A stretch of 11,923 nucleotides of DNA from a virus (lineage: Duplodnaviria > Heunggongvirae > Uroviricota > Caudoviricetes). Made by a program: the position numbers. Numbering within the stretch: position 1 is the stretch's first letter; each line of letters starts with the position of its first letter. This document shows, piece after piece, positions 6,001 to 11,923 of the stretch. The DNA lies in the IMG/VR virus record IMGVR_UViG_2703718811_000015, positions 1 through 11,923 of that record. One strand, given 5' to 3'.

Positions 6001-9000
6001 ATCATCTTTACCATTAATGAAGGTTGTACTGATATACTTGCTGCATTAACAGAGCTTTTTGAAGCATTCGGTAAAGCCTTTGAGAAGGTCACACACGGTA
6101 TGAGTCCTAGCCAAAAAACATTATGCTTCTTGTTTGCTGTCACCGTTATAGGCGGTGCGTGGGTTGGTACATCATACTTAGAGAAAAAAGCCGAAGTAGA
6201 AGTTAAGCAAGAAGAAACAAAGCTTGAAGAAGCCAAGATTAAATCAGAAAACGAGCGCATGACGATCTTAAGGGACGGAATGCTTGAGTCGATTAGAGCT
6301 AAAGCGGGCATAGATGCTGTAGAGCGCGCCGAAGGGATTCAAGAGCATACTGCAAAAGCGTATACAGGGGTATTAAAAGGCGCGTCTGATGCTGACAAAA
6401 TTGTCATATCAGGCGCAAGCACCGTTGAACTGTCTAACAAAGAAATCCACGAACTAATCAAGAATCCTATCGAAAAAGCAAAAAAAGAAGAAAGAAATCT
6501 TGAATTAGTCATTGATGGGATCAAGCGTACTGCGGAAAAGATAACCCTAAGCTGCCGCGAACCATCTAGTGAAGACAGTTTCCCTGTTTCAGTCGACACG
6601 TCGTTCATAGATGATAAAGACGAGATCGCCATACTGTTTGATGCAATGAAAGAAAACAGGACAGTAAAAATCTTGGGAAGCTACACGATACGAGCAGGTG
6701 TAATAGAAAACGGAAACGCATCAACCATCACTCGCCCATAACAGAAAATTTAACCCCGGCCCCTGCGCCGGGCTTTTCTTTGCATATCCCCTCCTGTTAT
6801 CTGTCCCCTTAAAAAATAAATCACTTTAAAAATCAGTTAAGTAATAATTTTTCGCCCTAAAAAGCACTGGCGGTATTTACATGAAAATCACCGCAAGTTA
6901 TATTTATTTCAAGCCAGAAACATCGCGCCCTTACACAGGGCTACATAAATCAGTCGTACGGCGCGACTTAACCCGCCGCAAAATGCTCTTTAACAATCTG
7001 GAGCTTTACAGCGTCAATGACCTGTTTAGACCCCTACACGTAAACGTGCTGTATCATCGGGTGCGATCCGGTCGATGAGAGAGTATCCCCGCGCGAGAGC
7101 GAGAACGGCGTGAGAACGGGCAACACTGGCAGGAAGTTGGCGCTGACCAATACAGGGAATGTTTTGGGGTGTGGTGAAGGGTTCATGGACGGGAATATGT
7201 CGCACGTAAAGCGGCGAGGCCCGAGGGACTATTGCTGAAGATAAGTAGGCCGAATCGGGTCGAAATGGGTCTCCCACCTGCCACATCGCCAAAGCGTTTC
7301 TGAGAAAGGACGGTATTGACTGCGTGTGATGTCGGGGCTATATTTGGCAAACACCTTATAAAACGGGTGTCGGGATTAGGACCCCGCTGACAATCGAGGC
7401 GATACAGACGCGCCAGCGTCTTTTTTTGTATCGACATACACGCACATCTTATCAATGGTGGGCTGTATGGGGCCGACTTCGGTCGGGCTGGTTCCCTTGA
7501 TTGCCAGTAGTCCTAACCCTGTACAGTCCACCGCCAGCGAGCTTAGGACCTCCTGCGGTGGTTCTCAATCACCAATCAAGGAGGCTGCCATTATGGCTAC
7601 TATCCCTGCCCTTTCTCAACCTGAAATCACCATTCAGAATGGTCGTGCCGTCACAACATCTGTTGCTATTGCAAATTTCTTTGACAAACGACACGAACGT
7701 GTAATTGATAAAGTTCGCAATCTGGAATGTTCGATTGAATTTGCTGAACACAATTTTGTGTCGAGTAAATACACCGACTCAACCGGGCGCAAACTCCCAA
7801 TGTACCAAATCACCAAAAACGGCTTCGTCTTCCTGGTGATGGGATTCACTGGTAAAAAAGCCGCTGCATTCAAGGAAGCCTACATTGCTGAATTCGATCG
7901 CATGGAAAAACAACTATGGGAACAGAAACAACTGGCCCTGTCTTCTCCTGCGATGAATATCAATTTCCCTTTATCGTGGTTTTCAGAGCATCACCCCTAC
8001 GCCACGATGAACTATGTTGATCGCAAAGTTATCAGCCTTGATGCTTCCGTGCTCTTCGATATGCCAAGCCCAACTATGCGCATCCTCAATGAGCTACACA
8101 GCAAGGGCTATAACGTCGATGCAGCTGTCGCCGAATTTAACGCCTTCAAGCATCTGACGGAAGAAATGCGCCGCACGCTACAGGATATTTCAAGACTGTC
8201 AGATCGAAATTCCCGAAAAGGCTTCTCGTTAAGTCTTTAAAGAACAGATCGTTTGACAATGCTGCATTAACGGGGATATATTCCGCCTCATGGTGCTGAA
8301 CACACCTTGCAAAGCGGAGACCGCACCCGTCAGTCATGCGGCTTTTTTATGTCCATTTTTCAGATATGGTCGGGTAGCGCGTATACCGAAAAACAGCCGA
8401 AAGGTTAAGGATACGGGCCGACTTTGCACGGTGTTCAAGTACCTGGCCGCCCTGCTGAACACAGGGCTATCTGAACAAATGCAAAGGACATAAAATATGA
8501 ACTCTCAACTCATCCCCGTATTCAACGGCACCATCGCCAACGAAACTACCCTGTTCTGTAATGCCCGTGATTTACATACTTTTCTTGGGGTAGGTAAACG
8601 CTTTGCGTCTTGGATTACAGAACGCATTGCTGAATATGGTTTCGTTGAAAATCAGGACTATATGATTGCTTCCCAAATTCGGGAAGCAAAAGGTAGAGGC
8701 GGTCACAACCGCAAGGAATACCACCTCACTCTCGATACAGCCAAAGAGTTTGCGATGGTTGAACGTAACGAAAAAGGCCGTCAGATCCGCCGATACTTCA
8801 TCGAGTGCGAAAAGAAACTTCGCCAGAGCCTTTTACCTGCACCAATGAACATCAACTACCCCCTCTCGTGGTTCTCAGAGCATCACCCCTATGCCACGAT
8901 GAACTATGTTGATCGCAAGGTTATCAGCCTTGATGCTTCCGTGCTCTTCGATATGCCAAGCCCGGTGATGCTGCCAACTTACTGATTTAGTGTATGATGG

Positions 9001-11923
9001 TGTTTTTGAGGTGCTCCAGTGGCTTCTGTTTCTATCAGCTGTCCCTCCTGTTCAGCTACTGACGGGGTGGTGCGTAACGGCAAAAGCACCGCCGGACATC
9101 AGCGCTATCTCTGCTCTCACTGCCGTAAAACATGGCAACTGCAGTTCACTTACACCGCTTCTCAACCCGGTACGCACCAGAAAATCATTGATATGGCCAT
9201 GAATGGCGTTGGATGCCGGGCAACTGCCCGCATTATGGGCGTTGGCCTCAACACGATTTTACGTCACTTAAAAAACTCAGGCCGCAGTCGGTAACCTCGC
9301 GCATACAGCCGGGCAGTGACGTCATCGTCTGCGCGGAAATGGACGAACAGTGGGGCTATGTCGGGGCTAAATCGCGCCAGCGCTGGCTGTTTTACGCGTA
9401 TGACAGGCTCCGGAAGACGGTTGTTGCGCACGTATTCGGTGAACGCACTATGGCGACGCTGGGGCGTCTTATGAGCCTGCTGTCACCCTTTGACGTGGTG
9501 ATATGGATGACGGATGGCTGGCCGCTGTATGAATCCCGCCTGAAGGGAAAGCTGCACGTAATCAGCAAGCGATATACGCAGCGAATTGAGCGGCATAACC
9601 TGAATCTGAGGCAGCACCTGGCACGGCTGGGACGGAAGTCGCTGTCGTTCTCAAAATCGGTGGAGCTGCATGACAAAGTCATCGGGCATTATCTGAACAT
9701 AAAACACTATCAATAAGTTGGAGTCATTACCCACCGCTTTAATCCTATCCGACGTGTCGGTATCTAAAGCAAGCAAGTTCTTGTTATCATTAAATATAAA
9801 CTCGGGTAAATGCAGGATACATTTTTCGTTATTCAAGCAACTATCAATGAATTGTTTTTTAAAAAACAGAAAGCTCCATGACATAAGACTACTCTGCCCC
9901 TGAATTTGGTTGTCAGATTGTAGATCAACGCCAAATAACGTCTTTACATCTTCCCTGAGATTATAGAATGCCGTATCAACAAGAGCCTCGATCGTTTTTT
10001 TATCAACCATTTTAATGAATTCGTTGTAAACTTCCTTTTGCATCTTATAACTGACCAGCGCCCATGAATAATCATGTTGTTTTAAAACCAGTATAGCTCT
10101 TAACAGACAATATCCATCGCCATCTACAGGAGCATATTTTAATCCTAATGCCTGGTTAGTTTCACGCTGAATAAAAGATATACCAGACAAATCAATGTCA
10201 GAATCCAAATCAGATATTCCCGGCGTATTTATCCGCTCTGGCTGGACACTTATATTTTCATCATCAAAACAATACTCAGAAAAAACATCATCACACGCAT
10301 TAATGTTTTCAATATACTCCATAAAGTTATACCAATAATAACCTTTAAAATCTGTGATAGACTCTGAAGCTCTGCCCGGCAAGGACACTCTAACAATATC
10401 AATATCTCGAACATATTGTATAGTATATGTAATACCTCCTGAAACCCCTGAATAAATTTGTGTATCATTAGTACGCAATGTTCTCATAAATAATGATAGA
10501 TCATTATCATTCTGCATTTCCTCAAATTCTTTTTCTAGTGATTCACATTCCAGACATGGAGTATCCTCTTCATTTACTTTACGTCTGAGTTCATTGTATA
10601 ACCGCATAAAACACACCAGTGTGTTTTCAAAAAGCGTGATTGAATATGTTTGATTTTTTTCGTACTCATTTTTTATATCGTTCCAGGCCTGTTTCAAATA
10701 ATTATTTGCAGTGCAACTAATTCCATGTATATTACTACCCATATATAGCGTCTATAAAATTTAATAAATAATGACGCCCTAGTTAAACTTAAAGTGCCTG
10801 GTTCAACTATCAAAAATCGCTCACCCTTTTTCACCTGTTTAAAATATGTTCAGCAACCCATCTTGATGGCGACCTCCTCTCCGCGATGATTTCAATAACA
10901 TATTCTGTGTTGGCATATGAAATTTTGAGGATTACCCTACACTTATAGGAGTTACCTTACAGGGGTTCCTTCAATTTGTGTTGATTTACGCGAGATAACG
11001 CTATGGAATTAAAGGATTATTACGCCATCATGGGCGTGAAACCGACGGACGATCTCAAGACAATCAAGACCGCCTATCGTCGACTTGCCCGCAAATACCA
11101 TCCTGATGTCAGCAAAGAACCGGATGCCGAAGCCCGCTTCAAAGAGGTCGCTGAAGCCTGGGAAGTGTTAAGTGATGAACAACGTCGCGCTGAGTATGAT
11201 CAGATGTGGCAACATCGCAACGATCCGCAATTTAACCGTCAGTTCCACCATGGCGACGGTCAGAGTTTTAACGCCGAAGATTTTGACGATATCTTCTCGT
11301 CAATTTTCGGTCAGCATGCCCGCCAGAGCCGTCAACGCCCCGCCACACGCGGCCACGATATTGAAATCGAAGTGGCGGTATTCCTCGAAGAAACGCTTAC
11401 TGAGCATAAGCGTACCATCAGCTATAACCTGCCGGTTTATAACGCCTTTGGCATGATCGAACAGGAAATTCCGAAAACGCTGAATGTGAAGATCCCGGCG
11501 GGCGTCGGCAATGGTCAACGCATCCGTCTGAAAGGCCAGGGGACGCCGGGCGAAAACGGCGGTCCAAATGGCGATTTGTGGCTGGTGATTCATATTGCGC
11601 CACATCCGCTGTTTGATATTGTCGGCCAGGATCTGGAAATTGTGGTGCCGGTTAGCCCGTGGGAAGCGGCGCTGGGTGCTAAAGTCACCGTTCCAACACT
11701 GAAAGAAAGCATTTTGCTGACTATCCCGCCAGGCAGCCAGGCCGGGCAACGATTGCGCGTTAAAGGCAAAGGTCTGGTGAGCAAAAAACAGACCGGCGAT
11801 CTGTATGCGGTACTGAAAATCGTGATGCCGCCGAAACCGGATGAAAACACTGCCGCGCTGTGGCAGCAACTGGCAGACGCCCAGTCGTCTTTTGATCCAC
11901 GTAAAGATTGGGGGAAAGCATAA

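Follow-up and report, generated by a model that had tools for sequence, protein, structure and literature searches.

A complete copy of the insertion sequence (IS) IS1 joins part of a lambdoid prophage to the Escherichia coli chromosomal gene yccE in a viral record assigned to the Caudoviricetes (IMG/VR record IMGVR_UViG_2703718811_000015, positions 1 to 11,923; this whole stretch of 11,923 nucleotides is referred to below as the window). IS1 occupies 8964-9731, with the truncated antirepressor gene antA of the prophage on its left and truncated yccE on its right. Each breakpoint falls, to the base, on an IS1 terminus, no target-site duplication is present, and the DNA that separates the two flanks in intact relatives is missing from the window. 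We consider it very probable that this structure records a genuine IS1-mediated deletion, either by adjacent deletion or by recombination between two IS1 copies. The whole window is 100% identical to a part of the draft E. coli contig ABCZAI010000010.1 (GCA_020319715.1; 123,890 bp), which continues beyond it with cbpM, torD, torA, torC, torR and torT. This contig and the two near-identical prophages described below were retrieved by an exact match to the Rha protein. A Shigella source, considered because E. coli genomes lack the junction, was dismissed on the strength of the 100% match to E. coli.

An earlier note on this DNA had suggested a deletion at the IS1 and proposed a comparison with relatives that lack the element; this comparison gave the predicted result and defines the deleted interval. 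Positions 1-8963 match prophages in CP061264.1 and GCA_040724595.1 with 99.978% and 99.967% identity, respectively, and both matches end exactly at 8963. In these two near-identical prophages antA is uninterrupted (gccaagccc is followed directly by aactatgcg) and is succeeded by gam, recT, exo and more early-left genes. Positions 9732-11923 are 99.954% identical to a prophage-free wrbA-yccE-cbpA chromosome in an alignment that starts at 9732, and intact yccE alleles also match from exactly this base (gaaaattctt is followed by caccgcttt).

The best annotated relative is the Shiga toxin (Stx) 1c prophage of E. coli STEC1585, with 99.4% identity over positions 1-5906 of the window and 95.6% over 6193-8963; this prophage is in turn 98.8% identical, with full coverage, to the arm in CP061264.1. 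It sits in wrbA, and its genes run from cro and the divergent cI through a hypothetical gene, Rha, AntA, a second hypothetical gene, GamL, RecT and Exo onward to a second Ant, an MT-A70 methylase and, after further genes, Xis and Int, followed on the chromosome by wrbA, yccJ, agp, yccE, cbpA, cbpM and torD. The Stx2a prophage of O104:H4 strain 2011C-3493 has the same chromosome junction (xis-int-wrbA-yccJ-agp-yccE-cbpA), and the DNA of both prophages is 95-99% identical to the phage part of the window. The two flanks of IS1 correspond to positions 10191 and 26056 of the STEC1585 locus, in the same order and the same orientation, and the 15,864 bp between these positions (~15.9 kb) are absent from the window. 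Homology with the chromosome resumes 37 nt into wrbA in STEC1585; the missing DNA comprises a phage part of ~13,240 bp and a chromosome part of ~2,625 bp. In intact relatives int, xis and the attachment site are found 12-13 kb past the antA breakpoint. The marks of a deletion junction, namely flanks that end at the IS1 termini, collinearity of these flanks in IS-less genomes and absence of the intervening DNA, are all present in the window, and the expected orientation of flanks that lie 15.9 kb apart in the references supports the deletion suggested earlier. Given this collinearity and the location of the closest annotated relative, wrbA was probably also the integration site of the window prophage. 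Because just 2.6 kb separate yccE from the wrbA attachment site and the orientation is as predicted, a coincidence is very unlikely.

Simple insertion of an IS1-family element leaves an 8-9 bp direct duplication, which is absent at 8964-9731. The left and right 9-mers (gccaagccc and caccgcttt) agree at 1 of 9 positions, and no direct repeat of 7, 8, 10 or 14 nt was found at the IS1 ends in the window. Two independent IS1 copies in other E. coli strains, used as controls, have perfect 9-bp duplications: aagcaagca flanks an IS1 inside yccE of strain 30COLEC, ~45 bp from the position of the window junction, and gtatattac flanks an IS1 in the yccE-cbpA spacer of strain MB57 (the control elements lie at 6045-6821 of locus L002 and 7005-7781 of locus L001). 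Since these copies come from the same neighborhood, the missing duplication in the window is real and unusual for IS1; the unrelated 9-mers described in the earlier note hold up against both controls. The absent duplication points to a later rearrangement and does not call the identity of the element as IS1 into question. IS copies without duplications have been attributed to adjacent deletion or to recombination between IS copies (PMC11708052). In the long-term evolution experiment, duplications accompanied 69 of 69 plain IS insertions and 0 of 14 deletion-associated ones, and all 14 of the latter were traced to adjacent deletions from pre-existing IS150 (PMC11708052).

The element itself is a full-length IS1 of 768 bp, IS1A-like, and the inverted repeats, reading frames and sequence identity confirm to the base the extent that had been assigned to it from the window sequence. 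Its terminal inverted repeats are imperfect and 23 bp long (left repeat, IRL, 8964-8986; right repeat, IRR, 9709-9731; arms 78% complementary), and its termini are identical to those of annotated IS1 copies. Over its entire length, it agrees with the annotated IS1A copies of two E. coli chromosomes at 767/768 and 766/768 positions (1 and 2 differences). Both insA (9019-9294, encoding a 91-amino acid InsA) and the insB’ frame (9213-9716, 167 amino acids) are open, and the A6C -1 frameshift site that joins them (TTAAAAAAC, 9268-9276) is intact. From these features, the copy is presumably competent to transpose.

Short queries spanning the left or the right junction had no contiguous match in 5,426 complete E. 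coli genomes, and exact-junction scans of the GTDB species representatives and of JGI metagenome contigs matched neither junction. This suggests that the event is recent and confined to one lineage. The possibility that an IS1-yccE junction of this kind is common to many E. coli was ruled out, as the other cases are independent IS1 insertions elsewhere, each with its own 9-bp duplication. Literature searches on IS1 plus wrbA yielded no description of this event.

Adjacent deletion is the route that we slightly favor, because it needs one prior insertion instead of two, and we hold it as the leading, if tentative, candidate. The starting point would be an E. coli chromosome with a 933W/Sp5-like lambdoid prophage integrated in wrbA. 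One IS1 would first have entered the DNA close to the int-proximal end of the prophage, in the AT-rich yccE or in antA, and would then have transposed intramolecularly and replicatively into the other site on the same chromosome. The DNA between IS1 and its new target would have been released as a non-replicating circle and lost, leaving one IS1 with one old and one new flank and, for that reason, with no target-site duplication. Since yccE is AT-rich and is recurrently struck by IS1, it is plausible either as the first site or as the intramolecular target. The phage DNA lost in this process would comprise the last 169 nt of antA, gam, recT, exo, the second ant gene, a methyltransferase and others, together with xis, int and the int-proximal attachment site; on the chromosome, wrbA from about nt 38 on, yccJ, agp and the last 246 nt of yccE would have been removed. 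Still in place in the prophage would be cI, cro, Rha, the replication genes and the nin region. None of the chromosomal genes removed is essential, and their loss is viable.

Several points weigh against a deletion that started from a single IS1 in a wrbA prophage. The one-IS1 precursor is hypothetical, since no relative with a lone IS1 at one or the other site came to light, and the precedent from the long-term evolution experiment concerns IS150, not IS1. Relatives with the same early region use other integration sites. The source is a draft contig of which one region was read, and agp, yccJ, wrbA and int could lie elsewhere in the genome. Recombination between two IS1 copies, moreover, yields the same product, and sequence alone cannot separate the two routes. 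In that case, RecA-dependent homologous recombination between two direct copies, in antA and in yccE, would have deleted the 15.9 kb and left a hybrid IS1; the antA copy would have duplicated gccaagccc and the yccE copy caccgcttt, hence the mismatched flanks. This is a real possibility, if a somewhat doubtful one: the predicted product is identical to the structure of the window, the surroundings of yccE repeatedly attract IS1 (the independent insertions in 30COLEC and MB57 and many matches in which yccE adjoins IS1), and such recombination is named as a frequent cause of missing duplications (PMC11708052). It needs, however, two independent IS1 insertions in the same orientation within 16 kb, neither of which occurs in the 5,426 complete genomes or the other collections, and antA is uninterrupted in both near-identical prophages.

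An assembly artifact, in which the genome has at least 2 IS1 copies and still contains the 16-kb interval, the loop having been skipped or the flanks mis-joined, seems distinctly improbable to us. The draft contig breaks inside the repeated region of the antiterminator gene Q yet runs through a 768-bp repeat, and a skipped loop would look the same; against this, an assembler that halts at the Q repeat would normally also halt at a multi-copy IS1, which suggests that in this genome IS1 is single-copy or was resolved. A random mis-join is also unlikely to link flanks that are close, collinear neighbors in the references, and an artifact would still require two IS1 insertions that are otherwise unobserved. 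We think it very improbable that the prophage resided elsewhere (e.g., at torS/torT or another place on the tor side) and that an inversion or translocation between IS1 copies joined antA to yccE with no deletion. IS-mediated inversions are common in E. coli, and relatives with the same early region occupy several sites, including tRNA-Arg and an rcsB-adjacent site, but the right flank lies 2.6 kb from the wrbA site of the closest annotated relatives in exactly the orientation of a deletion, for which the likelihood of a chance coincidence is roughly 1 in 100 or less. A deletion accounts for the collinear orientation of the flanks; an inversion through two inverted IS1 copies would instead have put the 3’ part of yccE beside IS1, whereas the 5’ part, with cbpA, is observed there. 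Had the deletion begun at a distant site, essential genes would have been lost. The chance is slim that IS1 was captured into a double-strand break during the deletion, with no staggered transposase cut and hence no duplication. De novo IS copies without target-site duplications have been reported at the center of deletions or duplications (PMC11708052), and capture has been proposed for IS5 and IS481, but this is a mechanism proposed for other IS families where the standard ones suffice, and both IS1 termini are perfectly intact, as expected for ends processed by transposase. We give practically no credence to a simple insertion whose duplication decayed by point mutation or was obscured by sequencing error. 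Two different genes, separated by 15.9 kb in the references, supply the flanks, the 9-mers match at a single position, and the 99.95-100% identity of both flanks to the intact counterparts up to the IS1 ends refutes both decay and sequencing error.

Features of the window discussed in the text (positions are those of the window; aa, amino acids; ORF, open reading frame).
Feature	Position	Strand	Basis or remark
IS1 (IS1A-like), complete	8964..9731	+	identity to copies annotated ‘IS1-like element IS1A family transposase’
Left flank 9-mer gccaagccc, final antA bases	8955..8963	.	intact antA goes on with aactatgcg
Right flank 9-mer caccgcttt, initial yccE bases	9732..9740	.	intact yccE has ...gaaaattctt before
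Truncated antA (antirepressor), IS1 fusion	8497..8985	+	Pfam AntA E=1e-25; PHROG anti-repressor Ant
Truncated yccE fused to IS1	9651..10742	-	comparison with intact yccE allele
cbpA (curved-DNA-binding DnaJ homologue), usual yccE neighbor	11003..11923	+	Pfam DnaJ and DnaJ_C; annotated in L001, L002 and L004; 99.95% identity to L018
Rha-family regulator, early-left operon, intact	7455..8240	+	identical protein in L014-L017
341-aa gene, variable slot beside cI	5716..6741	+	PHROG 6191 (function unknown)
cI-type repressor (helix-turn-helix and S24 peptidase), retained immunity gene	4906..5619	+	‘LexA family protein’ in STEC1585
cro, 67 aa, divergent from cI	4607..4810	-	Pfam Cro in source contig at 4793-4996 (= window +186); ‘Cro/CI family’ in STEC1585
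128-aa ORF, early-right	3687-4073	-	early-right block 1..4073 99.4% identical to STEC1585
DEAD-box helicase, early-right	2173-3693	-	Pfam label of identical gene on source contig
Primase-like gene, early-right	1212-2183	-	Pfam label of identical gene on source contig
DUF1367 gene, early-right	763-1212	-	Pfam label of identical gene on source contig
ninG, early-right	192-761	-	Pfam label of identical gene on source contig
ninH, early-right	1-195	-	Pfam label of identical gene on source contig

The gene cut on the left had been described as AntA-like, and both the domain matches and the comparison with the intact allele bear this out. The truncated antA keeps 467 of 636 nt and 156 of 211 residues relative to the intact 211-amino acid AntA of relative L014, and its fusion tail, VMLPTY, consists of 6 full IS1 codons plus one straddling codon before the stop (a 7-codon tail, as counted earlier, is an acceptable description). 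Direct repeats of 119 nt, 892 bp apart and identical at 110/119 positions, are located in the Rha gene (7953-8071) and the AntA gene (8845-8963). The two genes share a C-terminal module, ~221 nt long in intact relatives, and IS1 cuts off the second copy.

The prophage genes that remain have a lambdoid arrangement, with divergent cI and cro, the early-left operon on one side and the replication, nin and Q genes on the other; cI and the truncated early-left operon share one reading direction. The immunity region is still carried, and the absence of the left-arm functions is equally as first reported: gene calls, Pfam and PHROG identified no int, xis, recombination genes or attachment site in the window, including at the end of the early-left arm, where an integrase, an excisionase and an attachment site belong. 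Calling the prophage a remnant goes beyond the data, as the loss concerns the int-proximal arm and the Q, lysis and structural arm lies outside the window. The slot beside cI appears to be a variable cargo or defense slot. Its 341-amino acid gene has no Pfam and no PADLOC match, and the small ORFs of the window likewise have no PADLOC match. In STEC1585 the slot holds a shorter variant of 245 amino acids (an indel at about 5906-6193 of the window), and in O104:H4- and O157-type relatives it encodes an Eco57I-like methylase and a BsuBI/PstI-type endonuclease.

The AT-rich chromosomal gene that the earlier note saw cut on the right, with a 26-codon tail, is yccE (31-36% GC). It keeps 1011 of 1257 nt and 337 of 418 residues with 0 mismatches to the intact allele, lacks the last 246 nt, and ends in 26 IS1-encoded residues. 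Exact-protein look-ups of the AntA-IS1 and YccE-IS1 fusion ORFs returned no match, probably because such ORFs are treated as pseudogenes. In other E. coli, yccE and its spacer to cbpA are recurrently struck by IS1, IS1 adjoins yccE in most of the top 30 matches examined, and this AT-rich gene resembles an IS1 hot spot. The gene is also frameshifted in O104:H4 2011C-3493 (L028, 16875-18135), split into 116 and 302 amino acids in L021, 394 amino acids long in L022, and not called in L020, L026 and L027. E. coli genomes often have a damaged yccE to begin with, and losing the gene here probably matters little. The CbpA allele of the window is very common (65,862 blocks in an allele look-up).

Prophages with this early-left operon were found at three kinds of integration site, namely wrbA, tRNA-Arg (an O157:H7 strain) and a site adjacent to rcsB (strain JNEC-KY176), the latter two with other integrase modules (regions examined: L028, 13174-14484; L029, 8405-9574; L030, 12179-13468). 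This variation in integrase module and site illustrates modular exchange at the int end. At the opposite end, the source contig (L015) breaks off within the antiterminator gene Q, at its positions 1-186, immediately to the left of the first base of the window, and the same holds for contigs from three other draft assemblies (L012, L013, L016). The assembly thus breaks at a sequence that recurs among prophages, which hides the late genes and any stx. Among the relatives examined beyond Q (L005-L007 and L009 at about 2100-3400, L008, L010, L011, L014), several with the same early region have stx1 just beyond Q and others are without it; no stx is present beyond Q in the closest relative, CP061264.1 (99.98%).

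The classical deletions of the gal region of E. coli K-12 are reportedly IS1-promoted adjacent deletions, an observation said to go back to Reif and Saedler in 1975. As in those deletions and in the adjacent deletions from IS150 in the long-term evolution experiment (PMC11708052), the window has an IS kept with exact termini, a deletion that extends from the IS end, no duplication and a loss of kilobases of neighboring DNA; here, however, the precursor is hypothetical and the route deduced, and the prophage/chromosome boundary is spanned. Deletion by recombination of two IS copies (PMC11708052) also leaves a lone IS whose left flank comes from one copy and whose right flank comes from the other, and differs in requiring two prior insertions, neither of which was found in relatives.

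Stx-family lambdoid prophages immobilized by IS activity are represented by the defective Stx prophage of Shigella dysenteriae type 1 (McDonough & Butterton 1999, cited in PMC6379469). That prophage has many IS elements, whereas the window has one IS1 and one clean deletion in an E. coli host; as to stx, the late arm lies outside the window and the closest relative is without the gene. The cryptic or ‘grounded’ prophages of K-12 (DLP12, Rac, Qin, e14) and the defective prophages of O157 Sakai have likewise lost excision functions and kept regulatory genes, and deletions and IS insertions are the usual causes of such states (PMC6379469, PMC2669165). In contrast to these, the event described here looks very recent (99.98% identity to an intact prophage, one assembly), and its breakpoints are resolved to the base. 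With the wrbA Stx prophages (Sp5/933W of O157:H7, Stx2a of O104:H4, Stx1c of STEC1585) the window shares the order of the early region and the wrbA-yccJ-agp-yccE-cbpA neighborhood, the likeness at the DNA level (95-99%) applying only to the O104:H4 and STEC1585 prophages. It differs from them in the absence of the int-proximal 13 kb and of wrbA, and in the 341-amino acid gene that replaces restriction-modification genes by cI.

Judged from its gene content, the prophage should be ‘grounded’ in the sense of PMC6379469, as the loss of int, xis and one attachment site predicts that it is unable to excise. It would also have lost its Red-like recombination genes, while it keeps cI/cro immunity and probably SOS-inducible early-right transcription. 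With an intact late arm, induction could still bring about in-place replication and expression of late genes. We regard as unlikely a further reading, in which the cI, cro, replication, nin and Q genes that are kept and a late arm that may be intact make up a ‘locked-in’ yet SOS-inducible element rather than a dead remnant. If this were true, induction would lead to in-place replication and late-gene expression, including that of stx1 if present, and might amplify or package the adjacent cbpA-tor chromosome without excision; such an element would be, in natural E. coli, what the immobile toxin locus is in Shigella dysenteriae 1, or an equivalent of lateral transduction.

The type of event is well known, and this is a clear but ordinary case that opens no new question. 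It provides a base-resolved example of how one insertion sequence strands a prophage and removes host genes in a single step, and of an IS copy without a duplication as a reliable marker of such deletions. If the deletion is true, the strain is without agp, yccJ and wrbA, and a wrbA-based polymerase chain reaction assay for prophage occupancy would misreport its state. Should stx1 be present on the late arm, this phage could no longer transfer the toxin genes, which might nevertheless stay inducible.

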